DNA from: a virus
Taxonomy: Duplodnaviria > Caudoviricetes
Direction: 5' to 3' (one strand)
Length of the DNA stretch: 26,680 bases
IMG/VR virus record: IMGVR_UViG_3300038318_000053
Location: 1-26,680 of that record
Every line of letters begins with the position of its first letter. Within the stretch, counting starts at the first letter, position 1. The position numbers were made by a program, and so were the translations under genes. The notes beneath the pieces were generated by a model that worked only from the letters and a program-made list of their open reading frames with translations, did not search any database and had not been told where the DNA came from. Shown here in pieces: positions 1,550 to 26,680 of the stretch.

Positions 1550-3293
1550 AACTAAAAAATATCAAATAAACAGAAAGGGGTTTACCCCATGAGCAAGAAA
1601 ATAACTAAAGAGCAAATAGAATATATTATTAACAATTATGGTAAACAAAATGAGAGAGATATGGCAGATACCTTAGATTTGACGTTAAGGCAAGTTAGGA
1701 GAACCATATATAATAATAATTTGAATAAAAACGAATATGGTATTATACAAAGGAGCGACTCGAAGCTAACGCCGCAAGAAAAATGTTTTGTATTGGAAAA
1801 TTATTCACATATGTCTACCATAGAAATATCTAAAATATTAAATGTTTCTAGAGATGATGTTGCAATATTTGCACAAAGACATAAGTTGAAAAAAGCATCT
1901 GATAAATATAAAGATAATGGCACGTTTACATTATCTGAAAAACAGTTTATCATTGATAACTATGCAGATATGACTACTAGAGAAATGGGAAGGTTGTTAA
2001 ATTCTTCGCTAAGTAAAATTTATTCATATGCTAGAACGCATAATTTAACTAAGAGTAAAAATTATATAGAATTTAGACAACGAGATGAAGGACTAACTTT
2101 AAAGCAAAAAGAGTTTATTTTAAGTAACTATTCTGATATGCAATCTAATAAAATTTGCAAAAAACTTAATATTACTTATGAGCAGTTAAGGTCTTTCGCA
2201 TCTAACCATAATCTAAGAAAATCAGTTCAAGGACATAATAATCCTCATCATTACTATGAGGAGCTTTTAAAAAAAAGAAAAGATAAAACAAACTATAATG
2301 TTTTTGATTTTATCAATAATTCCGAAGAAATTAAATTACCTTTGGATTTATTATATAAAAGTAAGTATGGTAAATATTGTGTGAATAGCAACTACTTCAA
2401 CAAAATAGACAATGAATTTAAAGCATATTGGCTAGGGTTTTTATATGCAGATGGATGTGTAACTATCAAGAAACCGAATGGCAAGAAGTCTTTTGTTTTG
2501 AGCTTGGCTCTTGCTATTAAAGATGAAGAGCATATAAAAAAATTTAGAAGTAGTATTCAGTCGGATGCTCCAATTAAGTCACGTAATATTAGAGATGATT
2601 TTTACAGTAGCTATATTAATATATGCAATAGAACGATAGTTGAGGATTTAAACAATCTCGGGTGTGTTCCATGCAAGTCACTCAAATTAAAGTTTCCTAC
2701 AAAAGATACAGTCCCTATAAAATATCTTAGAGATTTTATTAGGGGATATTTTGATGGTGACGGGTGTATACATATTAATACTCAAAAAAGAGAAGTAGGC
2801 ATTAGTTTTGTAGGAACATATGAATTTTTAAAAGATTTGCAAAACGTAATGTGTAATGAACTAGATATTTCTCATGTAAAGATTTATAAGAAAGAAAATC
2901 AACAAGCATATGCTTGTGGGTGGGGAAGTGTCAGGAGTTGTGAAAAAATTTATAAATATTTGTATAGAGATTGTAACATATGTTTAGATAGAAAATTAAA
3001 AAAATTTGATATTTTATATTGCTTGGATTAAACAAAATATGGATAGTTTAATCTGAAAGAGGGCAAAATCGGTGAAGTCCACCTTGAGAGGGATAATACC
3101 GAGGTAATTATAAATTTTAAAAAATTTATAACACCGTAACGAGTAGTGGTTGAACCTGCGTTTTGTAGAATATAATACCACCAAGAGTGTCCTCCGCACA
3201 CCATATTATATGTGCGAAAATGTACTCTGTTCTTATACGATAAGGTAAAAGTATAAGAATCATAGGATAAAGAGCCTATGAGATAACAAAAAG
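1550..3293 (+). mobile_element. Group I intron in terL (1744 nt) with homing endonuclease ORF in the P1 loop
   Basis: 5' exon ends TTAAGT and pairs with IGS GCTTGG (3021-3026, U-G wobble); P2 GATTAAAC/GTTTAATC; P4 ATCGGT/ACCGA; P7 AAC-GAGTA/TACTC-T; terminal G3293. Removal restores SRGLS|KSFIVSLYC in frame. Confidence 0.92.
1589..3031 (+). CDS. Intron-encoded two-motif LAGLIDADG homing endonuclease with four N-terminal HTH-like repeats
   Basis: Motifs AYWLGFLYADGCV and DFIRGYFDGDGCI; N-terminal ~55-aa repeats of the form T..EK.FI..NY..M...EI...LN.S......A..HNL.K. Confidence 0.9.
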   Translation: MSKKITKEQIEYIINNYGKQNERDMADTLDLTLRQVRRTIYNNNLNKNEYGIIQRSDSKLTPQEKCFVLENYSHMSTIEISKILNVSRDDVAIFAQRHKLKKASDKYKDNGTFTLSEKQFIIDNYADMTTREMGRLLNSSLSKIYSYARTHNLTKSKNYIEFRQRDEGLTLKQKEFILSNYSDMQSNKICKKLNITYEQLRSFASNHNLRKSVQGHNNPHHYYEELLKKRKDKTNYNVFDFINNSEEIKLPLDLLYKSKYGKYCVNSNYFNKIDNEFKAYWLGFLYADGCVTIKKPNGKKSFVLSLALAIKDEEHIKKFRSSIQSDAPIKSRNIRDDFYSSYINICNRTIVEDLNNLGCVPCKSLKLKFPTKDTVPIKYLRDFIRGYFDGDGCIHINTQKREVGISFVGTYEFLKDLQNVMCNELDISHVKIYKKENQQAYACGWGSVRSCEKIYKYLYRDCNICLDRKLKKFDILYCLD

Positions 3294-4886
3294 AAATCCT
3301 TCATTGTTTCGCTCTATTGCGTCATTAAAGCTCTTTTATTCCCATACAGCGAAATTGTAATAACGTCATCGACAATAGACCAAGCAAATAAGATAGTGGA
3401 CAATAAAATAGAAACAGAATTGATTGGAAAATTATCATCTATTCTTAAATGGATGAAAGAGCAAGGCATGATAAAAATAACACAACCAAAAGATTGTAAA
3501 TGTGTAGATTTTTGGAACGGTAGTTGGATTAAGGTTATGCCAGCGTTAGATTCATCTAGAGGTGAACGTGCTTCTGTTTTGGTGGCAGAAGAGTGCAGAC
3601 TTATAAAAAAGGGAATTTGGGATTCTGTATTTAAGAAGATGTCACATCCAAGACAGGCTGAATTTTTAAAGCAACCTGAATATGAGTCCGAAAAAAGTTT
3701 ACTTGAAGAGTGTCAGGAAATATATATTACTTCAGCATATTTTAAATCGGAATGGTTTTGGCGTAGTTTTGTAAATACTGTAAAAGGATGCTATAATGAT
3801 AGAAGTATTGACTACAATTTTTATGCTGGCGATATATTTACTTCAATCAAACATGGTCTTAAAACTATTAAAGATTTAAAAAAATCTAAGCAGGATTCGG
3901 GTGAATTAGAGTTCCGAATGGAAGATTTGAATGAAATGGTCGGAGAGGGAGAAAATGCTTATTTTACATTAGATATGTTTAAGCGTAATCAGGTTCTTAC
4001 TAAAGCCTTTAAACCATTTATTTCATCTGAGTTTAATGCAAATGTAAATTTGAAAAACCGACAAAAGGGTGATAATGAATATAGATTACTTTGTGTCGAT
4101 TTGGCATTTACAGATAATGCACAAGGCAAAAGTGAAGAAGCCGATAGATGTGCATTAGAATGTTTAAGTGTAATTTGCAAAGATAATGGCAAAATAAGTC
4201 GGCAATTAGAGTATGTTGAATCTTTAAGTGGTGGCGATGATAAATTAGTAAAAAGAAGAATGAGAGAATTATTTTGGGATTATCAATGTGATTATATTAT
4301 AATGGATTTGCGTAATGGGGGTGAAAATTATTTTAATGATTTATCAACTCCGTGGCAACACCCCGAAAGAAATGAATGGAATACACACGGATTTGGGTTG
4401 TGTATGGAAGATGAATTACAAGTTATACCAACAGGTAAAATCAATGAACTTATGAATAGAACGGTTGACCCTGAATATATACCTTGTATGATTCCAATTC
4501 AAGCGAGTGCTGAATTTAACTCTGTTGCATGGAAATCGCTTTGGAAGTCTTTAAATAATGGTGTTTTAAAATTATTGGAAGATGAACTGCAAGCGGAACA
4601 AAGAATTGATGCAACAAAATATGCTTTTATGACAAGTGAAGAGAAGGTAAGATATAAAAATCCGTTTGTGCAAACGGATTTATTGATAACAGAAGGTATT
4701 AATTTAAGCCAAACTTGGAGAAATGGTACTTTAACTTTGCATGAACCACGTTCAGGACATAAAGATAGAATGTCCGCACTTCAATATGGAAGCATAATAG
4801 CGGATAAGATAGAAAATAAATACGCAGTATTACAAAATCAAGATAAGTTTGATGTTGCGGATTATGCAAATTATTTAATTTATTAG
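3294..4886 (+). CDS. terL: Terminase large subunit, exon 2
   Basis: Frame is open from 3294 (KSFIVSLYCVIKALLFPYSEIVITSST); SRGERASVLVAEECR (Walker B region), YITSA coupling motif, RNase H-like nuclease residues LLCVDLA and HKDRMSA. Confidence 0.92.
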   Translation, partial: KSFIVSLYCVIKALLFPYSEIVITSSTIDQANKIVDNKIETELIGKLSSILKWMKEQGMIKITQPKDCKCVDFWNGSWIKVMPALDSSRGERASVLVAEECRLIKKGIWDSVFKKMSHPRQAEFLKQPEYESEKSLLEECQEIYITSAYFKSEWFWRSFVNTVKGCYNDRSIDYNFYAGDIFTSIKHGLKTIKDLKKSKQDSGELEFRMEDLNEMVGEGENAYFTLDMFKRNQVLTKAFKPFISSEFNANVNLKNRQKGDNEYRLLCVDLAFTDNAQGKSEEADRCALECLSVICKDNGKISRQLEYVESLSGGDDKLVKRRMRELFWDYQCDYIIMDLRNGGENYFNDLSTPWQHPERNEWNTHGFGLCMEDELQVIPTGKINELMNRTVDPEYIPCMIPIQASAEFNSVAWKSLWKSLNNGVLKLLEDELQAEQRIDATKYAFMTSEEKVRYKNPFVQTDLLITEGINLSQTWRNGTLTLHEPRSGHKDRMSALQYGSIIADKIENKYAVLQNQDKFDVADYANYLIY

Positions 4887-16168: not shown

Positions 16169-16552
16169 ATGTTTTGTGAATATTGCAAAGTGGCGAGTTA
16201 TAAAGATTTATGCCAGTGTAAAATAACAGGCAAACCTTGTGGATTTGTTCGTAGGTGTTTACATGACAAATGTTGGAAGCCGTTAGATTATATGACATAT
16301 TGTAAAATAAGGAAAGAGGGTGTTATTGTGCCTAAAGGTAAGAATAGAGTTAGATTCGAAATGAGGGGTATACTATATGTAGATGTTGATGATTTTACAT
16401 ATGAAATTAAAAACCCTTATGATTATACTCCTAATTATGTAGAGGTTACTAAAGTTGGCGGCGAATATTATATAAAAGGATTTGAGCCAAAGAAAAAGAG
16501 TGATGTTGCTAAAGATAGCGACAAGACCAAAGATGAAAAGGAAAAGGAATGA
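16169..16552 (+). CDS. Hypothetical protein with Cys-rich N-terminus
   Basis: SD AAAGGAG; eight Cys in the first 45 aa; ATGA overlap with mazF. Confidence 0.7.
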   Translation: MFCEYCKVASYKDLCQCKITGKPCGFVRRCLHDKCWKPLDYMTYCKIRKEGVIVPKGKNRVRFEMRGILYVDVDDFTYEIKNPYDYTPNYVEVTKVGGEYYIKGFEPKKKSDVAKDSDKTKDEKEKE

Positions 16553-16923
16553 AACGCTTTGTAAATCAATGGTGCGTTTATAATGTAGATTTGGGCGAAC
16601 CTAATGGGTCAGTGCAAGGCGGTGTTCGCCCTTGTCTAATCGTTCAAAATGCTATAGGTAATTCATATAGCCCAACAACAGTATGCGTACCTATTACTCA
16701 TCAGCAAAACAAATCCAATATTCCTCCGCATTATACATTGTATAAATCGGAATATCCGTTTTTTAATTATAATACCAATGTATTATTGTGTGAGCAAATT
16801 GTGACGATTGACGTACATAATCAAGTATTACAGTATATGGGCAAAATAAAAGATAATGATAAAGAGCCTATATTGAATACTATTAATAAGAATTTCATTT
16901 TAAAGGATGAAAGGAGCAAATGA
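16549..16923 (+). CDS. mazF: MazF/PemK-family endoribonuclease
   Basis: VDLGEPNGSVQGGVRPCLIVQNAIGNSYSPTTVCVPIT and LCEQIVTID closely match the Bacillus EndoA/MazF signature, with catalytic Arg (RP) and Thr present. Confidence 0.92.
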   Translation: MKRFVNQWCVYNVDLGEPNGSVQGGVRPCLIVQNAIGNSYSPTTVCVPITHQQNKSNIPPHYTLYKSEYPFFNYNTNVLLCEQIVTIDVHNQVLQYMGKIKDNDKEPILNTINKNFILKDERSK

Positions 16924-17377: not shown

Positions 17378-17833
17378 ATGGCTACAGAAATAAGAACTGA
17401 AGCCCAATTAAACAAAGTGTTGGGTACAATTACTTTAAGTGTATTAGATGATGTTTTGGAAAATATGAGAAATGCCTTGGAAAATTGTATAGAGGAAGAG
17501 GTGTATTCTACTTATGAGCCAATGTATTATGAAAGAACATACGATTTTCGTATGGCTTGGGAAGTGGAAAAAGCCAAAATTGTTGGTGCGGCTATGAGCG
17601 GAGAAATAGAATTTAATCCTGATTTATTAGATGTTGACGAAACTTATTTTCAACATACTCAAGCTGAGAAATTGGCTGAATTGGTATATAATGGATATGC
17701 TCCAAATTGGACTAACGCTGTAAATAGCACCCCAGCACGAAATTATTGGAATCCATTTATAACAATAGTCAATGAAAATTTTAGAAATTGGGTAAAAGAA
17801 GGATATATAAAAAGAGGATTGGTGGTTCTTTAA
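17378..17833 (+). CDS. Putative neck/tail completion protein
   Basis: SD GAGGTGA; EEVYSTYEPMYYERT...PARNY pattern loosely like HK97 gp10-type proteins. Confidence 0.45.
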   Translation: MATEIRTEAQLNKVLGTITLSVLDDVLENMRNALENCIEEEVYSTYEPMYYERTYDFRMAWEVEKAKIVGAAMSGEIEFNPDLLDVDETYFQHTQAEKLAELVYNGYAPNWTNAVNSTPARNYWNPFITIVNENFRNWVKEGYIKRGLVVL

Positions 17834-18375
17834 TGTGTGAACAAATTGTACTGTCTTTAGACATGTCTACAACGTGTACTGGGTGGGCATTATTTAAGGA
17901 AAAAGAGTTAATTGATTACGGAAAGATTACGCCAAATAAAAGCGATGAATGGCAAGACCGATTACAAGAAATAACTTTTGAAATAAAATCGGTAGTTGAG
18001 CATTACAACCCAACTAAAATTGTTGCTGAAGATGTACCATTAAAGCGAAGCGGTGGTATGAAAACATTGGTTATGTTAGGAGCTGTTCAGGGTGCTTTGT
18101 TGGCAATATGCGGAACATATGACATTGAATATCAATTAGTCCCTGTTGCCACATGGAGACGCAAAGTTGAGTTATTTGATGGGACAGAAAAAGGAAAGGA
18201 AAGAAGTGTTTTAAAACAACATTCTATAGAATTGGCGAATAAACTATTTGACTTATCGTTGGTTTATAAAAGTCCTACAAGTAAATTTAACGATGATGAT
18301 ATTAGCGATGCTGTTCTAGTGGGTTATTCCACTTTCTTAAAGGATAAACGGTTAGGTAAAAAGATAGATATATAA
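17833..18375 (+). CDS. RuvC-like Holliday junction resolvase
   Basis: VLSLDMSTTCTGWALF, KIVAEDV, VPVATWRR and DDDISDAVLVG give the D-E-D-D RNase H-fold catalytic set; start ATG 17833 overlaps the upstream TAA. Confidence 0.85.
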   Translation: MCEQIVLSLDMSTTCTGWALFKEKELIDYGKITPNKSDEWQDRLQEITFEIKSVVEHYNPTKIVAEDVPLKRSGGMKTLVMLGAVQGALLAICGTYDIEYQLVPVATWRRKVELFDGTEKGKERSVLKQHSIELANKLFDLSLVYKSPTSKFNDDDISDAVLVGYSTFLKDKRLGKKIDI

Positions 18376-18402: not shown

Positions 18403-18813
18403 ATGGCAGGTAGTACATTTTCCGTACTGGTTGATGCTCACCTTAATACTGCAACTTTGAGAGCTGATTTAGAATCTATGAGCAAAACTGGAACTCTAAG
18501 TGTTGATATGACGCAAGCTCAAAAGGGCGTAAACACTATGAGTGAGTCTATAAGTGGTACTCAAAAAAAAGTAAAAGGTTTAAGTGGAGTATTAAAAGAT
18601 TTTGGTACAACCGTAGGGAAAGTATTTAAGTTTGCGGCGGCTACTGCGGCTATTGGTGCTGTTACGACCGCTGTATATAGTGCTGGTCAAGCAATAAAGG
18701 AATATGATGCGGCACTTATAGATTATCAGAAAGTTTCTGATTTGAGTGGTGAATCATTAAATAAGTATGCTAAACATTTGGGCGAATTGGGTTCAAGTGT
18801 GGCGAGGACTCGT
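18403..18813 (+). CDS. tmp: TMP exon 1 (411 nt)
   Basis: SD AAAGGAGG; ends ACT CGT; YDAALIDYQKVSD motif. Confidence 0.9.
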
Positions 18814-21800
18814 AAACCATGGTGCGAGAACGTATAGTAATATGCGTTAAGAATCTACCTAAAACTCATAACTCTTAAAGCCTTATAAACTACAGCACAA
18901 GGATGAAATATGCCTAAATGCGAATGTGGGAAACTGTTAAAAATTATAAGGATAATCTATGATTGAAAAATCTAAGGGTGGTAAAAATAGATGATGAGTA
19001 GCGAAGTTCCGAACAGGAATGTGTTGAACGACTACCACGATGCAATAATAAGGTATGTGATAATACACGAAGCATCATATGTGGGTACAACTCAAGCGAG
19101 TTGGAAACGGTAGACCCCTTATATTAGGGTGAAGAAATAGTCTGAACAATTTATGAAAGTAAATGGAGATGAACAATCTCATTAAGAAGTAGCGATTCTT
19201 AATAAACGAAAAATAGACCGAAATGATTTCAGCTTCAACAGAATTTAAGAAAAGTGGATATTCTGATAAAGATAGTGCAAAATTGGCGAAAGTTGCATCT
19301 TGATTATAAGGATGAGTGTGTGGTGACATACATTAAGAATAGGGTGAATTGCTGGAAAGCTAAACTTAATTGAGCAAGCCAATCAGCATCCAAGATTTTG
19401 TTGAAATACAAAATAAGGTTCACAGACTATCGAAAGCAATCAAGTAAAATAATACTTGACAAATGTAACTAATTATGATATAATTAGAATAAGTCCAATA
19501 ATGGAACGAAGCGAGTAGAGTACACTTTAAGTAAAGTGGAAGTGCCCTATATCTGTAGATTACAGATAAAGATATAGTCGAAACTCATGTGAAAATATGA
19601 GAGGTTGTTTAAGGAGAAATAATATGGCGTGGTATATACCGCAATCACAGATGAATAATAACCCACTAGATAGAAAAATTGTAATAGATAAAATTAGTCA
19701 ATATGGATATAAGCCTATAAATAAGAATTTTGTTTATATTAATCAAGAAACAAAAATACCATGTTATGATTGGGATGGTTATATAGTAAATGTAGCGTAT
19801 GCAAGATTAGGTAAAGTAAAAAATTTTTTAAGGTTTGATACAAAAAGTAACTTAGAAAATTTTGTATATAATGCTAATATACTAGGCTCTAAACTTAATA
19901 ACAAATCCAAAGTTGTTAATGTGTATAAAACTTCTAAGGATAAAATACGTAAAAATAGTAGGATAGTTGTTGGGTGTATTTGTGATTGTGGAGAATATTT
20001 TGAAACTGATTGGGCAGAGTGGAGAATGGGGCGTAAATCAGTATGTGAAGATTGCATTACAAAATATTCTAAGTTAGAAATGACAGTAAGAAAATTTTTA
20101 GACTGGAATCATATTGCTTCTATATACCAATATAAATTTGATGATTGCGTATTAAAAAAATGTTTACCGTTTGATTTCTTTTGTCCCATGGAGAATTTAT
20201 GTATTGAAGTAGATGGAGAACAGCATCGAAAACCAAGAGCTTTTAATGGTGGAGATAAGGCTTTTGAAAATATTCAATCACGTGATAATATAAAAACGCA
20301 ATATTGTAAAAATAAAAATATTGCATTATTAAGAATAACGAATAAAGAAATTATAAATGGGAAATATCGAGACAAAATTCTTAAAGCAACCAATCGAAAG
20401 TAACGATTTCGATTTAATATAATTGTTATATCAGAACATCGCCGATGAACAATTAAGTGCGTCAGATGCATCGAGTGTAATTATTTCGCAGATGAAAGCG
20501 TTCAATATTACTGCGGATAAATCAACACATATCATTGATAGTATCAACGCCGTAAGTAACAATTTTGCCGTATCTTCAGGAGATATAGGTAGAGGATTAA
20601 CGTCAGCAGGTGCGGCGTTAAGTACATATGGTAACTCGTTTGAACAGACGATTGGGTAAATAACTTGCTCAAGTAAAACGACTTTAATTGACGGGGAAAC
20701 CCTAAAGTTTTATACACCAACTTATAATGGAGACATATATAAGGGCAAACAGTAATGTGTTTGGTATGGTAAAAGATATAAAGATATATGGGCAATCCGC
20801 AACCAAGCATCTAAAGAGTATAGATGAAGGCTCAAAGATTATCGAAAGCAATAAATGTAACTAATTAATTTTAGAATAAGTGCTATTAAGCAACGAAGTG
20901 AGTAGAGTAAAACACGAGTGTGTTTGAAAAGGGTCGGTCTAATATAGACATGATATAATCTAATCTTATGTGAGAGCATAAGGCAATAATTTGCATAAAG
21001 GATTAACGAACCTTTATAAATATAAATGTAGTGACAGCGGGTACTGAGGTAATGCACGGTAAAGCCCAACAAGTTGCGAGAGGGAGAATTTAGCCCTAGT
21101 TGTATAGAAATATGCAATAGCAACAGAAATATAAATACAAATCTAAACCCAGTAAATCCTAAAGTTCTAATAACTACAACGTAATGATGAAATAAGCATA
21201 AGCGTGAATGTGCGAAAGTATTAAAAATATTAGAAATGGCTCATGGTTGAAAAACCTAAAAGTTAATACAATGGAGTTTTGGGTGCAAAGCCTCGAATAG
21301 AGGTGTGTCTAACGACTATCCCATAGGTGAACATATCACAATAGGAGTAAGGCTACTATGTCTAAGGTAGCGGGTGAAATTCCCTTAATTTGAAATGATT
21401 TGCTCTTAACAGGTAATGCTGAAGATGAAGAAATAGTCTACTCTCGTATGAAAGTGCGAGGAATTTAATGTTGATAATAGGAATATATTATCAACATTAG
21501 TTCATTAAAGTGTGACGAACTTTAATAAATATCAAGGCTAAATACAGTCGCAGGGCGTGTAGCTAAAAACAGCGATGCCCTAGCGAAATATGGAGTATCA
21601 GTAAAAGATTCAAATGGGAATTTACGTTCAACATACGACATCTTAAAAGATTTATCGCCGCAATGGAATAAGATGTCAAACAGCGAGAAAGTTTCATTAG
21701 GAAATACATTAGCAGGTTAAATGATTTTAGCCCGTATAGACTTAATTGACGGGGAAGAAAAGGGTCGTGCCTTTTATCTATACTAATAGTATGGATGCCT

Positions 21801-24800
21801 AAAGTTTTGCATACCAACCTAAAGTGGTAACATATTTGGGGGCTTAAAGTAACTAATTAAGATATGGTAAAAAATGTAAAAATATATGGTCAATCCGCAA
21901 CGAAGATTCCATTGGAATATGGAATAACGCTCAACGCATATCGAAAGCAATTAGTATAATACTAATAAATGTAACTTTATTATATAAAGAATAAGTGGGG
22001 AATCCCAACGAAGCGAGTAGAGTAGGTCATAATGCTAATGACCGAAAGAGTCTACACTTAGGAATAAGTGAAAATATATGCTGGTCAACATAGGAAAACT
22101 ATGTGAGTATTTTATTGATAAAAAGGAAAAAGATGAAGAGAAAATTTGTAGATTTAACAGGTCGAAAATTTGGATTATTAACACCACTATATCGTACACA
22201 TATTGGAGACAATGGTAAAAAATTAGAAAAGATTAGTTATTATTGCTCTTGTGAATGTGGTGGACATTGTTATGCCACGTATACACAATTAGTAAATGGA
22301 AATATTACGAGTTGTGGATGTAATAGAGGGCACGGTGGCAAAAAATATAAACTTAAATTTTTAGATGTTAAAAAAACATTTAATGATAGAGAACTTATTT
22401 TAGATGCTAATGAATACATTAATTCTAAAACCGCAATGAATTGCCATGATGCAGACGGATATAAATATAGTTTATCAAACGACTCAGTTTCAGATAAAAG
22501 GACAAAATCATTTGATAGATTTTGTAAGAAAAACAAGTTTGTATTATATAATATACAACATTGGATAGATTTACATGGAGTTCAAACTAAGTTGCTTAAT
22601 ACAGAATATCATGGCGAGAGAGATGTCTTAAACTTAGTTTGCGAATGTGGTAGACCCTTTCAAAGTACATGGAATCATTTGCAAGTATTAGATAAAACTA
22701 AATGTTATACATGTTGTAATGGGTCTCGATTAGAACAAGATATAGAAGATTATTTAATTGAAAATGATGTGAAGTATGTTAGAGAAAAAACCTTTAAAGG
22801 ATGTCGTGATAAAATAAGTTTACGATTTGATTTTTATTTGCCTGAATATAATCATGTGATTGAAGTAAATGGGGCACAACATTATATAGAGGTGGATATG
22901 TTTATTGATACTTTGGCTGAAAGACAAAGAAGAGATAAAATAAAATTAAACTATTGCTTGAATCACGATATAGGATATACCGCAATTCCTTATTGGGATA
23001 TAACTGGGCACAAAGCAAATAATAAATATAAAGAAACAATCAATAAAATACTGAAATAATTTAGCACATTATTTCAAACACAAACGGTAAATCAATATAA
23101 GGTAACACAAAATAAAATGCCTTTAACAAACTATATCGGTTAAAATCTAGAGATAGACAAGACCGAGCAAAGACTTGACAACTGTCAAGAATGTGTAACG
23201 ACTGCGATAGCCTTTATGGTAACATATAGGTTTAAGTTTGTTCTTGTTATAAACAAGTAATATACAGTCTGAACTCACACTATAATCTAAATATGAAATG
23301 TGAGAAATAGCTAGAAATAACTATTCGCCTTGTAGTGAGGTCAGTAACCAACAATTTGATGGTGAAAGTAACAGAGTGATTTGCGGCAGTAATGGGAAAT
23401 TTCAAAACTGCCATCAAAGCTAATGAAACTGCGTTAAATTCTTCGGGTTCAGCCGCCAAAGAGAACTCGAAGTATATGCAAAGTTTAAGTGCTTAAAATT
23501 CGGATTTAGGTACTATATTATAGCGATATAATATAAGCAACAGACTTAATTGCTGGAAACCCCTTAGAGATTCATAAACTACAACATAATTAGAAATAAT
23601 AAGTGTGAATGTTAAAAAATTATGAATATTGGGCAATCAGCAGAGAAGCCTCACTTGAAATAGTGGGGAACTTTCAACGACTATTAAAAGCAATTAGTGT
23701 AATACTAATAAATGTAACTTTGGAACACAAAGAATAAGCCATTATAATGGACGAAGCGAGTAAAGTACATGATAAATTCATGGAAAGAGTCTGCTCTATG
23801 ATAAATAGATGAAAATATAGTCTATCCTCATGTGAAAGCATGAGAGAAATATAATAAATAGGTGAAAATATGGATTATGAGGAAATAAAGAATAAAGTTG
23901 AACAATATGGCTATGTGCTATTAAGCGATTCTTATAAAAGCAATAATGATATTATATATATAGCATTACCATATTATATGTTTGAAACAGATGAATATAT
24001 TAAAATTTTAAATACCTATTTATAAAATATTTCAAATAAGAGAAAGTCGAAGGATTAAAAGCGGCATGGCAAGAATTAATATTAGGAAACGGTGGATTAG
24101 TACAAGGGGCTAAAGTTTTACTTGATGTAGCTACTGGTTTTCTCAAATTGGGTGACTCTATTGGAGGAATACCTATAGCATTAACTGCGGCGGCGGCGGG
24201 GTTCGTTAGCTTGTTAATACATTTATCTAAATTTTCAGATGCGGCAACTAAAGCGGCAGAGGCGAGTAAAGAACTTACCATTATTCAAAAGGCAAGTGCT
24301 GGATGGGATGTATTAACAGCGGCGATATCAAAATACGCCTTAAAAATAAAAGATACTGCTGTTGCACAAGCATTTTTAAACAGCCAAATGTCAGCGATGT
24401 TAGCGGTCGCCGCACCGTATATAGCAATAGTGGCTGGAATCGTTGCTGGTGCATACGCATTAGATAAAGCCAACAAAAAATGGGGCGGTAGTCTTTCTAA
24501 TGATGCGGCGTTCCAAAAGGCATCTAAAAATATTGATGCATACAGTAAGAAACTCAAGAGTATGGAAAAGGGTACGCAATCCGATTTGAGTTCTGCAAGT
24601 GGAGATGCTAATTATTATAGTGCTTTATACGACCAGCTTATGGATATAACCGATGCAAATGGTAAAGTTAAAAAAGGTGAAGAGGCAAGAGCACAGTTCA
24701 TAACTGGCACGTTAAATAGTGCATTGGGCACTAATATGCAACTTCAGAATGGTATCATAACTGGGTTAAATGGCGAAAAGGGTGCTGTTGAAAAATTAAT

Positions 24801-26680
24801 AAAAGCTAAACAAGCTGAAGCAATACTTGAAGCGTATAAAGATGATTATGTCCAAGCATTAAAAGATAGAGAAAAGGCTGAGAAAAACTATCAAACAGCA
24901 TACGAAAAAAATAAAAAAGCACAAGCTAAAGCGGCTAAAACTGGTTCAACGGCAGACGCAAAAGCGGCACAGCAATCTCAGAAAGCCTTAGATAAAGCTA
25001 CTGCTAATCTTCATAAAAATGCTAAAGCCCAAGAGAAATATACTAAGGCTATGAAGTTAGCGGCTGAGGGTAAAACTGATGAAATTATTAAATTAAGTAA
25101 TCAGGAAATAGATACCGCCGATGACGTTACAAGCAAGCATTATGCATCATCTAAGAAAAAAGTAAAAGCTATCAATAAAGAAATTGATGCTATTAATACT
25201 CAAATTGATGGGTATAAAAATTTACAAAAGGGTGTAAGCAAAAATAGTGATGAATACAAAGAGTACCAAAGTCAAATTGATAAATTAAAGACAAAAAAGG
25301 GAGAACTAACGACAGCTCTTAATACCGAAAAGGCGGCGATGAAGTCTAATGGAGATGCCACTAAAAAAGCTGGAGATAAAATGTCGTTAGCTCGTGTGCG
25401 AGCTGTAAATTTAAAGAACACACTACGTAGCGGATGGTCAATTAATCTTTCGGGCGTATTTTCATCTCTTAATAGTCTTATAACCAAAGCTGGTCAAGCA
25501 AGAGAGGCTATTAGGAAAGCAAACGGCGGTGGTACTAGGGGCGTTAACGCCACATCAACTAAAGCCGCAGGCGGTGAGTCTCAGGGTGGAGATACGCTCG
25601 TAGGTGAAAAGGGGCGAGAACTTGTTCAGAGTGGCGATATTGCATATATGGTCGGCGAGTATGGTGCAGAAATTGTCAAATTAAAAAAAGGCGATTTTGT
25701 ATATACTAATGCTCAGACTGAGCGTATGCTCAAAGGTCAAAAGTCATCACCTAGACTTAAAGCTCGTTCAAAAGGTACAAAAGATACTTTAGATAGTTAT
25801 TTTGATACTTACGAGGAATGGTTATCTAAAGGCAGTAAAAGTGTATCACAATATTATAATGCGACTGTAGGAAATGCAACAACATATAAAAAGCGTAAAT
25901 GGATAAGTGCATCTGATTACATGGATGCTTTAGAGAGTAGTGCTAGTACATTATTTTCAACGATGGACGATTTATATGATGCTGGAGCAATTTCTACAAA
26001 AAATTATTATAATAATCTGCTTAAATATGCAAATGCATATAAATCAAAAGGTGCTTTAACTGTTAAAGAGTATTTTGATTATATAACTAAAGCAAAAGAT
26101 ACACTTGTTGATTCTGTCAAGAACGATTTGGAAAAATTAGAAGATAAAACGAGTGGAACTGTAGATTCTTTAGAGTCTAAGTTTGGTGCGTTTACAACTT
26201 ATGCCGATGAGCAAAAGACAATATTGCAAGGGCAATTAGATGCTCTCGATGCTAAAGAATCGGCTTTAAATGGGACTGATTTAGCTGGGCTTCAGAAAAA
26301 CTTGGAAACGGCTCAAAATAGCAAAAATGTTCGAGTGTATAGCGCGGCGAAAGGCTGGCAGTATGAAGCCGACCAAAGTGCTGTCGATGAAGCTCAAAAG
26401 GCTATTGATGAGTATAACCTTAATCAAGAAAAGCAAGCAATACAAGACCAAATGGATGCGTATGATAATTTCTTGAGTGAGCAAGAAACGTATTTGAATA
26501 AATATATTCAAGAACTTGAATTAGGTAAAACTATTGAAGAAGTTGTATTTAAAGATAGAGAACAAAACTTTGATAATTTCAAAGAATCGTATCTCGAATA
26601 TATGAAAGACATGTTGAAGGCTCAGGATGAGTATGTAGCGGCTCAGAAAGAAAACTCATTAGTTTCTAATGCTGATAATT
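18403..26680 (+). CDS. tmp: Tail tape measure protein gene split by 7 group I introns: join(18403..18813,19217..19300,20426..20657,21029..21084,21538..21717,23087..23103,23379..23493,24043..>26680), more than 1244 aa
   Basis: Joined exons read in one frame: SSVARTR|TEMISASTEFKKSG..KVAS|LYQNIAD..EQTIGL|VTAGTE..QVARG|LNTV..LRSTYDILKDL..TLAG|VNQYKV|FAAVMGNF..SGSAAKENSKYMQSLSA|KVEGLKAAWQEL, which is a TP901-type TMP core. Downstream KAAGG..LVGEKGRELV motif. 3' end is outside the window. Confidence 0.93.
18814..19216 (+). ncRNA. TMP group I intron 1 (403 nt, no ORF)
   Basis: P1 CTCGT/GCGAG (U-G); P10 GGT/ACC; P7 AAC-GACTA/TAGTC-T; terminal G19216. Confidence 0.9.
19217..19300 (+). CDS. tmp: TMP exon 2 (84 nt)
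   Basis: TEMISASTEFKKSGYSDKDSAKLAKVAS. Confidence 0.88.
19456..19484 (+). promoter_or_regulatory. Consensus sigmaA/sigma70 promoter inside intron 2
   Basis: TTGACA(19456-19461), 17-nt spacer, TATAAT(19479-19484), with extended -10 TG at 19476-19477; 140 nt upstream of the endonuclease ATG. Confidence 0.75.
19624..20403 (+). CDS. Intron-encoded EDxHD/Vsr-like (PD-(D/E)xK fold) homing endonuclease
   Basis: SD AAGGAG before ATG 19624; CDCG..CEDC zinc motif, SKLE, LPFDFF..LCIEVDGEQH..RDNIK..YC..NI.LLRI. Confidence 0.85.
   Translation: MAWYIPQSQMNNNPLDRKIVIDKISQYGYKPINKNFVYINQETKIPCYDWDGYIVNVAYARLGKVKNFLRFDTKSNLENFVYNANILGSKLNNKSKVVNVYKTSKDKIRKNSRIVVGCICDCGEYFETDWAEWRMGRKSVCEDCITKYSKLEMTVRKFLDWNHIASIYQYKFDDCVLKKCLPFDFFCPMENLCIEVDGEQHRKPRAFNGGDKAFENIQSRDNIKTQYCKNKNIALLRITNKEIINGKYRDKILKATNRK
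20426..20657 (+). CDS. tmp: TMP exon 3 (232 nt)
   Basis: LYQNIADE...IIDSINAVSNNFAVSSGDIG...GNSFEQTIG plus 1 nt. Confidence 0.9.
20658..21028 (+). ncRNA. TMP group I intron 3 (371 nt, no ORF)
   Basis: P1 TTGGGT/GCTCAA; P4 AATTGACGGG/AATCCGCAA; P7 AA-GATTA/TAATC-T; terminal G21028. Confidence 0.9.
21029..21084 (+). CDS. tmp: TMP exon 4 (55-56 nt)
   Basis: (L)VTAGTEVMHGKAQQVARG; 3' boundary ambiguous by 1 nt within a G run. Confidence 0.85.
21085..21537 (+). ncRNA. TMP group I intron 4 (453 nt, no ORF, non-canonical 5' splice site)
   Basis: IGS ATTTAGCCCT is fully complementary to the ligated junction AGGG|CTAAAT; P7 AAC-GACTA/TAGTC-T; similar to intron 1; terminal G21537 (or 21536). Confidence 0.85.
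21538..21717 (+). CDS. tmp: TMP exon 5 (180 nt)
   Basis: LNTVAGRV...YGVSVKDSNGNLRSTYDILKDLSPQWNKMS..TLAG. Confidence 0.9.
21718..23086 (+). mobile_element. TMP group I intron 5 (1369 nt) with endonuclease ORF in the P9 region
   Basis: P1 GGT/GCC; P10 TGATTT/AAATCA; P4 AATTGACGGG/AATCCGCAA; P7 AAC-GCATA/TATGC-T; terminal G23086. Confidence 0.9.
22133..23059 (+). CDS. Intron-encoded EDxHD/Vsr-like homing endonuclease with N-terminal Cys-rich domain
   Basis: SD AAAGGA before ATG 22133; DLTGRKFGLLT..YCSCECG..TSCGC, CECG..CYTC, SRLE, LRFDFYLP..VIEVNGAQH..RDKIK. Confidence 0.85.
   Translation: MKRKFVDLTGRKFGLLTPLYRTHIGDNGKKLEKISYYCSCECGGHCYATYTQLVNGNITSCGCNRGHGGKKYKLKFLDVKKTFNDRELILDANEYINSKTAMNCHDADGYKYSLSNDSVSDKRTKSFDRFCKKNKFVLYNIQHWIDLHGVQTKLLNTEYHGERDVLNLVCECGRPFQSTWNHLQVLDKTKCYTCCNGSRLEQDIEDYLIENDVKYVREKTFKGCRDKISLRFDFYLPEYNHVIEVNGAQHYIEVDMFIDTLAERQRRDKIKLNYCLNHDIGYTAIPYWDITGHKANNKYKETINKILK
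23087..23103 (+). CDS. tmp: TMP exon 6 (17-nt micro-exon)
   Basis: GTAAATCAATATAAGGT encodes VNQYK(V); needed to keep the frame between exons 5 and 7. Confidence 0.82.
23104..23378 (+). ncRNA. TMP group I intron 6 (275 nt, compact, no ORF)
   Basis: P1 AAGGT/GCCTT; P10 AAAT/ATTT; P4 ATCGGT/ACCGA; P7 AAC-GACTG/CAGTC-T; terminal G23378. Confidence 0.88.
23379..23493 (+). CDS. tmp: TMP exon 7 (115 nt)
   Basis: FAAVMGNFKTAIKANETALNSSGSAAKENSKYMQSLSA. Confidence 0.9.
23494..24042 (+). ncRNA. TMP group I intron 7 (549 nt) with endonuclease remnant
   Basis: P1 AGTGCT/GGTACT; P10 TTCGGATTT/AAAGTCGAA; P4 AATTGCTGGAA/AATCAGCAG; P7 AAC-GACTA/TAGTC-T; terminal G24042. Confidence 0.9.
23870..24025 (+). 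pseudogene. Internally deleted homing endonuclease remnant (51-aa ORF)
   Basis: SD AGGTGA; MDYEEIKNKVEQYGYVLLSDSYKS resembles N-terminal parts of the other two TMP endonucleases, and NNDIIYIALPYY..EYIKILN resembles their C-termini (NHDIGYTAIPYW..KYKETIN); catalytic core absent. Confidence 0.75.
24043..26680 (+). CDS. tmp: TMP exon 8 (partial, runs off the window; absent from the ORF track)
   Basis: Frame reads KVEGLKAAWQELILGNGGL..., Ala/Lys-rich coiled coil with hydrophobic segments and the AGG..LVGEKGRELV motif, still open at 26680. Confidence 0.92.

Follow-up and report, generated by a model that had tools for sequence, protein, structure and literature searches.

A phage tape-measure gene interrupted by seven predicted group I-type introns, and a variant intron lineage that may have exchanged its splice-site pair

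The stretch of DNA considered here (the window: all 26,680 nucleotides (nt) analysed, positions 1 to 26,680 of the IMG/VR virus record IMGVR_UViG_3300038318_000053, Duplodnaviria; Caudoviricetes) carries the head-to-tail module of a tailed phage with AT-rich DNA, in which genes for the portal and other virion proteins are followed by a MazF-like gene, a gene for a RuvC-like resolvase and a gene that appears in the unspliced DNA as a series of fragments. By the comparisons described below, the last of these is a gene for the phage tape-measure protein (TMP) that is cut by seven predicted group I-type introns, all of them in its conserved N-terminal domain. The assignment to TMP is drawn from a PhageMin_Tail core, a long open reading frame (ORF) in the tail module and a colinear homologue, the unbroken TMP of the Enterocloster phage PMBT24, to which the joined protein is 38% identical over residues 4-444 (E 2e-86). 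An earlier note on this DNA, made from the letters and their ORFs, had proposed eight exons and seven introns in this region, the exons joining into one TMP frame, and had named colinearity of the spliced protein with intron-less homologues as a check. The proposed lengths tile positions 18403-26680 exactly, the joined frame runs through 1244 codons with 0 stops and is open at the end of the window, and the colinearity holds against PMBT24. Exons 2-7 sum to 684 nt and the introns to 4545 nt. The sequencing run that holds the window best is a fermentation metagenome, and a single contig of run X1, the likely source, covers the entire stretch; a contig of run X2, from a different study, is identical to the window over 21028-21441, an interval that comprises exon 4 and the greater part of intron 4. 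Because of these two contigs, an assembly artefact is an unlikely cause of the intron-rich structure.

The exon-intron borders were recovered independently by spliced alignment to a profile of 20 distinct intron-less homologues, which were drawn from 150 fetched loci, the window being excluded. Used without any bonus for splice sites, this profile opened exactly seven gaps, of 403, 1125, 371, 453, 1369, 275 and 549 nt, and these are the seven intron lengths of the earlier note. When a small bonus was given for a terminal G and an exon-terminal U, six of the seven borders also became identical to those proposed. For intron 4 the length of 453 nt stands and the register calls for a correction: the border can slide by one base with an identical product, and the relatives favour the earlier of the two positions (21084-21536), so that exon 5 gains the base that exon 4 loses. 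The first stop codon is encountered 0-13 codons into each of the seven introns, and early in-frame stops after the 5' splice site have been described as a rule for phage introns (PMC2504315). Together with the cores described next and the joined frame, the intron-less profile bears out the claim of seven group I-type introns within a single TMP frame.

Reading by hand identified in all seven introns a P3/P7 pseudoknot core in which P4 and P8 follow the proper order, together with a G-C guanosine-binding pair in P7 and a terminal G; the P7 strands are those listed in the earlier note, including the strands of an eighth intron elsewhere in the window (1550-3293). In intron 5, P3 and P4 are fully paired on reading by hand, a scripted search having been offset so that it missed both positions. 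The predicted structures fall into three core types: a standard core in introns 2, 3, 5 and 7 (local identity of segments 70-88%, not uniform), a variant core in introns 1 and 4 (73% identity over 116 nt) and the compact core of intron 6, whose P4 strands resemble those of the eighth intron. Six of the introns have an insert of ~80-120 nt between P7 and P3', the place where introns of subgroup IA2 have P7.1 and P7.2, by which that subgroup is recognized. A guide sequence forming P1 at each 5' splice site had also been proposed, and a U·G pair is found there in introns 1-3 and 5-7, while in intron 4 the pair is G-C in either register. The search with the Rfam group I model (RF00028) that had been suggested as a check gave matches to five of the seven introns (Table 1).

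Table 1. Predicted features of the TMP gene and its introns in the window
Feature	Position	Strand	Evidence and remarks
TMP exon 1 (137 codons)	18403..18813	+	joined frame, intron-less profile; PHROG TMP matches, weak Pfam TMP_2
Intron 1, variant core, U·G, no ORF	18814..19216	+	RF00028 25.3 bits; helices; missing in some strains
J5/4 of intron 1, A at its end	18992-18994	+	helices
Exon 2	19217..19300	+	joined frame, intron-less profile
Intron 2, standard core, U·G	19301..20425	+	RF00028 51.8 bits; relatives with intron at same site
Homing-endonuclease-like ORF in intron 2 (likely start 19624)	19597..20403	+	phrog_559, 9084, 7140; weak Pfam DUF559
Exon 3, PhageMin_Tail core	20426..20657	+	PF10145 44.9 bits; phrog_4211
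Intron 3, standard core, U·G, no ORF	20658..21028	+	RF00028 26.8 bits; helices
Exon 4 (55 nt; 56 in the register of the earlier note)	21029..21083	+	intron-less profile, relatives
Intron 4, variant core, no ORF; exon-terminal G pairs with guide-sequence C	21084..21536	+	RF00028 32.4 bits (3' half); P1 fold; same geometry in relatives
J5/4 of intron 4, G-U-U; no A at the place equivalent to the wobble-receptor A	21276..21278	+	helices; equivalence by place
Exon 5 (181 nt)	21537..21717	+	PF10145 33.2 bits
Intron 5, standard core, U·G	21718..23086	+	no Rfam match; helices; site occupied in 30/106 relatives
Homing-endonuclease-like ORF in intron 5 (likely start 22133)	22103..23059	+	phrog_559, 9084, 7140; no Pfam match; no credible PDB match
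Exon 6, 17 nt	23087..23103	+	intron-less profile; same micro-exon in L082
Intron 6, compact third core type like eighth intron, U·G, no ORF	23104..23378	+	no Rfam match; helices; related introns in L082 and phage TR-TP1 (TMP gene)
Exon 7; last 12 nt unlike intron-less allele	23379..23493	+	strain comparison
Intron 7, standard core, U·G	23494..24042	+	RF00028 38.9 bits; missing in X3 and X6
51-codon ORF in intron 7, likely nuclease remnant	23870-24025	+	no family match in PHROG or Pfam
Exon 8, open at window end	24043..26680	+	joined frame; weak TMP PHROG match

Comparison with contigs from other sequencing runs revealed that the intron content of this gene varies among otherwise similar strains. 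Runs of three studies lack intron 1 (X2, X3/X6 and X11), with an exact skip of 403 nt in X2; intron 7 is absent from a single study (X3 and X6), where the last 12 bases of the exon before it also show a same-length change; and the putative nuclease ORF of intron 2 is deleted in three studies (runs X2, X3, X6 and X8). Other studies carry the same introns as the window. Most of the strain differences listed for exon 1 (16 of 19, by hand count over 40 rows) lie at third-codon positions. In X2, the block at 21028-23946 is represented by three pieces of contigs, of 414, 1308 and 1221 nt, with 1 difference from the window among them, as compared with differences at 21 of 514 and 52 of 656 positions (4-8%) in the exons on either side; this contrast suggests a recent transfer of the intron-rich region as a single block.

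The wider distribution of introns in TMP relatives was surveyed by aligning 134 of the 150 loci (16 duplicates were left out), of which 106 cover the domain; near-copies remain in this sample, and the search seeds favour unbroken exon-3 motifs. Three low-scoring loci (L059-L061) and a misaligned one (L064) were omitted, double breaks at columns 260-272, an artefact of the spliced aligner at a variable protein linker, were merged by hand, and breaks at columns 375-377 were dropped as edge effects, some of which may be real downstream introns. The relatives carry 0 introns in 21 cases, 1 in 37, 2 in 32, 3 in 11, 4 in 2 and 5 in 3, at 16 sites, no one of which is occupied in more than 39 of the 106. 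Six of the seven sites of the window recur in them; site 365 does not, although two relatives have an intron at 362. The judgment that seven introns are extreme is thus upheld, since the maximum among the relatives is five; an estimate assuming independence gives P(7 or more)=7e-5, which is descriptive only because the loci are related. An 11-nt exon between two introns in L036/L037 (site 321-324) is shorter than the 17-nt exon 6 of the window.

Seven is the highest intron count found for one phage gene, and the published multi-intron phage genes have fewer: a literature search, which left most subscription papers and older group I work outside its range, found no phage gene with five or more introns. 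The closest parallel is in prophages of the Bacillus cereus group, in which the group I introns TMP-IVS1, -IVS2 and -IVS3 reside in a tape-measure gene (PMC2504315). They resemble the introns described here in their host gene, their early in-frame stops and the frequent loss of nuclease genes, and differ from them in occupying, as described there, three sites with at most two introns per gene, as compared with seven per gene and 16 sites in the family of the window. Orf142 of phage Twort has three introns and undergoes exon skipping (PMC11878797), and the capsid gene of the crAss-like Zeta phages is in five fragments (PMC7886860); like these, the TMP gene of the window has several introns in one virion structural gene, but it has more of them and belongs to a different kind of gene and phage group. 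Among cultured phages, the TMP gene of TR-TP1 (L269, 2365-10194) is split by at least two nuclease-bearing introns and annotated as separate genes; one of these introns is related to intron 6, with an ORF inserted in P6.

The earlier note had further proposed that the introns set the dosage or timing of TMP. Each intron that remained unspliced would truncate the protein, so that the yield would drop multiplicatively, and it has been noted that introns may not be neutral (PMC3984707). The sets of introns and nucleases nevertheless vary among near-identical strains without any conserved subset, 21 of the 106 relatives are intron-free and the gene of the cultured phage PMBT24 is unbroken, and we therefore regard maintenance of the introns for lowering or delaying TMP output as unlikely, though it is the best surviving of the alternatives. 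Since the sets vary among strains and the relatives carry 0-5 introns at 16 sites, it is most likely that the introns are selfish elements that splice themselves out and do not act as a regulator. Introns appear to have been gained and lost, and their nucleases to have decayed, a pattern that agrees with a homing hot spot and not with a dosage switch or a conserved regulatory set. Tail assembly would still require seven splicing events, provided that all of the introns are active.

Intron 4 does not have the U·G pair in P1 at the 5' splice site that is canonical for group I introns, and it was filed as a variant: the preceding exon ends in G in either register and is paired to C in the P1 fold. 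The same G-C geometry exists at this site in nine relatives with the variant core, in a tenth (L108) and in four more, and in most of them only a cut after the second G of a glycine codon retains both the terminal G and a leucine that is present in 19 of the 20 intron-less homologues. L067 has a standard-core intron beside this site, apparently with U·G. The exon-terminal base is U in 88 of 90 standard-core introns (assigned by site) as compared with 25 of 47 variant-core introns, the others of the 47 ending in C (8) or G (14). A BLAST search with intron 4 against cultured phages and plasmids gave no match covering 80% of it, and the three matches that were read in sequence (L265-L267) proved to be standard-core introns that share a P5 extension.

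A precedent for splicing after G comes from the group B (IS607) IStrons, which combine an insertion sequence (IS) component with a U·G pair shifted by one base; BcISt1 was found by reverse-transcription PCR to splice after G in vivo at a target ending in GG, the mechanism being left open (PMC4227781). Intron 4 resembles these elements in having a 5' exon that ends in GG. It differs in having no IS607 transposase or TnpB, no plus-strand ORF of 50 codons within its 453 nt and no shifted U·G nearby, such a pair being found in L006, L008 and L108 only. The sole clear group B-like element in our sample (L266, with TnpB and a CGG end) has a standard core with its receptor As, unlike the variant core of intron 4; it lies at ~2100-3860 in the portal gene of Bacillus phage vB_BceH_LY2, where it is annotated only as transposases. 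L268 also has a standard core and was not confirmed as an IStron. Intron 4 is thus, by its predicted structure, not a group B IStron, although it is like one where it is spliced.

In solved ribozymes the U·G wobble is contacted by an A, P1 docking through U·G and A207 (Tetrahymena), A87 (Azoarcus) or A83 (Twort) (PMC1891724); the counterpart of this A by position in the variant core is the base that immediately precedes the 3' strand of P4. The window introns share the helical framework of these ribozymes and six of them keep U·G, but the lineage of intron 4 lacks both the wobble and an A at the equivalent place. The variant-core fold is itself supported by double-sided changes in 10 of the 16 pairs of P4, P5 and P6 (0 of 500 shuffles were as high), although the structure was drawn from the same sequences, which favours this score. 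Among 47 rows, the receptor A is present in 25 of 25 introns with an exon-terminal U and replaced in 21 of 22 without it. Viral contigs were scanned with two patterns (85 and 28 matches), which added variant-core members, nearly all with TMP-like flanks as judged by eye; 26 of 43 non-A candidates were resolved by terminal G and frame and 3 repeated earlier contigs, and the 17 A candidates that were resolved all had U. In the merged set of 81 distinct cores, U·G goes with the receptor A, and another pair with its loss, in 79, while the best other column agrees in 62. On a tree built without P1 and J5/4 the two traits change 11 and 9 times, and independent contrasts gave 6 in agreement, 0 opposite and 2 ties (p=0.031), an earlier and underpowered contrast test on the 47 rows having given 4 the same and 0 opposite (p=0.125). 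Both states exist within the one gene of the window, as U·G with A in intron 1 and G-C with U in intron 4.

On this basis we lean, with reserve, toward the view that a widespread lineage of phage group I introns, found here almost only in TMP genes, may repeatedly have traded U·G for G-C, C-G, C·A or U-A by a change of one receptor base in J5/4, which would amount to a natural and reversible switch of 5' splice-site specificity. Exceptions to U·G in the form of C-G are known for fungal group I introns. In the literature searched, from which most subscription papers, older group I work and supplementary files were absent, no natural covariation of receptor and splice pair was found, and the available account of the Bacillus TMP-IVS introns mentions no non-U splice site (PMC2504315). 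Several points weigh against the proposed switch. Two of the 81 cores are exceptions (L108 at site 261, and L170), a dropped row (L225) looks like a third, and the 14 remaining non-A candidates were dropped as unresolved. The automatic calling of P1 partners was noisy, so that it was used for the exon-terminal bases only, the pairs being judged by eye. The receptor contact described in the literature is to the 2'-OH of A207 (PMC1891724), to which the base considered here is equivalent by position only, and the usual loop is 3x3 (PMC2219692) as opposed to 4x3 in the variant core. In two standard-core introns (L120 and L133; 6230, site 242) the exon apparently ends in A opposite G although the receptor As are kept.

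A gene with so many introns might also be a defective one, in which one or more of them, above all intron 4, is dead. That intron 4 lacks U·G, that introns 5 and 6 have no Rfam match and that two RNA runs yielded no spliced RNA could all be explained in this way. The 1244 codons free of stops, the mostly silent differences between strains and the identity of intron 4 in a second study are less easily reconciled with a dead intron, as is the recurrence, in diverse phages, of the G-C geometry with a terminal G and an intact frame; moreover, BcISt1 does splice after G (PMC4227781). We judge a defective gene or phage to be improbable, and somewhat more so than the regulatory explanation. Least probable of all is a cut one base later in intron 4 and its kin, ending on a non-G base, or exon skipping with a functional product, notwithstanding the U·G pair one base downstream in L006, L008 and L108 and the exon skipping reported for Twort orf142 and phage SIOphi (PMC11878797): in the later register the terminal base would have to vary (A, C or G), whereas every resolved case has G in the preferred one, and the G-binding pair of P7 is intact; a cut at the downstream U·G with a terminal G would shift the frame in those three loci; and among exons 2-7 only the skipping of exon 2 by itself would keep the frame, and the intron-less homologues contain this exon.

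The explanation that we consider probable as a whole is that seven group I-type introns of three core types likely reached the TMP gene separately, through homing, and that each is predicted to remove itself in its own splicing reaction, intron 4 doing so at a G-C pair with a replaced wobble-receptor A. Each intron would excise itself by the two-step guanosine mechanism, and the stop codon soon after each 5' splice site would keep ribosomes out of the core. The putative nucleases of introns 2 and 5 would drive homing, and co-conversion could take neighbouring nuclease-less introns along. TMP is needed in few copies per virion, and the load might be tolerated for this reason. In the variant lineage, the absence of U·G and that of the receptor A would compensate for each other and lead to the use of sites ending in G or C; in intron 4, a Watson-Crick P1 would dock on the remodelled receptor and be cut at the G-C pair. 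Other observations run counter to this explanation. No spliced RNA was found in the RNA runs X11 and X20, for which only contigs were searched and uncovered parts are uninformative, and contigs of both runs cross exon-intron borders unspliced. A skip of intron 1 in X11 was considered as splicing and rejected, as it shares its exon-2 differences with the intron-less DNA allele; runs X3 and X6, which are probably DNA, contain no spliced joint. Only intron 2 passes the RF00028 gathering score of 50, and the cores of introns 5 and 6, which the model does not match, are drawn from hand-read helices and from relatives with introns at the same sites. The nuclease role of the two intron ORFs is predicted from family matches, and the idea that insertion sites choose the most conserved motifs was abandoned (conservation 0.658 as compared with 0.640 in the rest of the domain, p=0.23).

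Some further features of the window and its relatives may be recorded here. The Enterocloster phages PMBT24 and CB473P3 are the nearest cultured relatives found (portal 46-47%, exon 3 55%), and for this reason the host is likely a clostridial Firmicute. PMBT24 has a similar gene order, with a MazF/PemK-like toxin gene (16549-16923 in the window, within the tail module) also near its TMP gene and a RuvC-like resolvase gene (17788-18375 in the window) immediately 5' of it; in both phages, unlike the window, the TMP gene has no intron in this domain. It is a speculation that the resolvase could assist homing repair. The four standard-core introns share, in their P7.1 region and nowhere else, a 9-nt motif (at 19461, 20853, 21967 and 23710), whose copy in intron 2 overlaps a sigma-70-like promoter that lies upstream of the nuclease ORF. 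The eighth intron carries a LAGLIDADG ORF (1589-3031), apparently in the loop of P1, with the guide sequence at the end of the ORF. Part of intron 6 (23118-23173) is matched by very deep contigs in runs X1 and X8, so that a relative of this intron lies in some unrelated locus of high abundance. At site 137, many of the variant-core introns (e.g. L008/L009, 5917-6613) have promoter-like sequence after P9, and some have a small hydrophobic ORF in place of a nuclease.

The seven-intron TMP gene illustrates the splicing load that an essential virion gene can likely carry, and also how ordinary annotation breaks up genes of this kind. The more surprising part is the variant lineage with its matched receptor change. 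Group I introns are regarded as having U·G at their 5' splice sites almost without exception. Natural pairs of close introns that differ in the splice pair and in one receptor base would make the mechanism of splicing after G testable, and the proposed switch, if true, would loosen the rule that the splice site must follow U, which limits engineered trans-splicing and RNA circularisation (with the Anabaena intron, a change from U·G to G·U abolished circularisation; PMC12355055).

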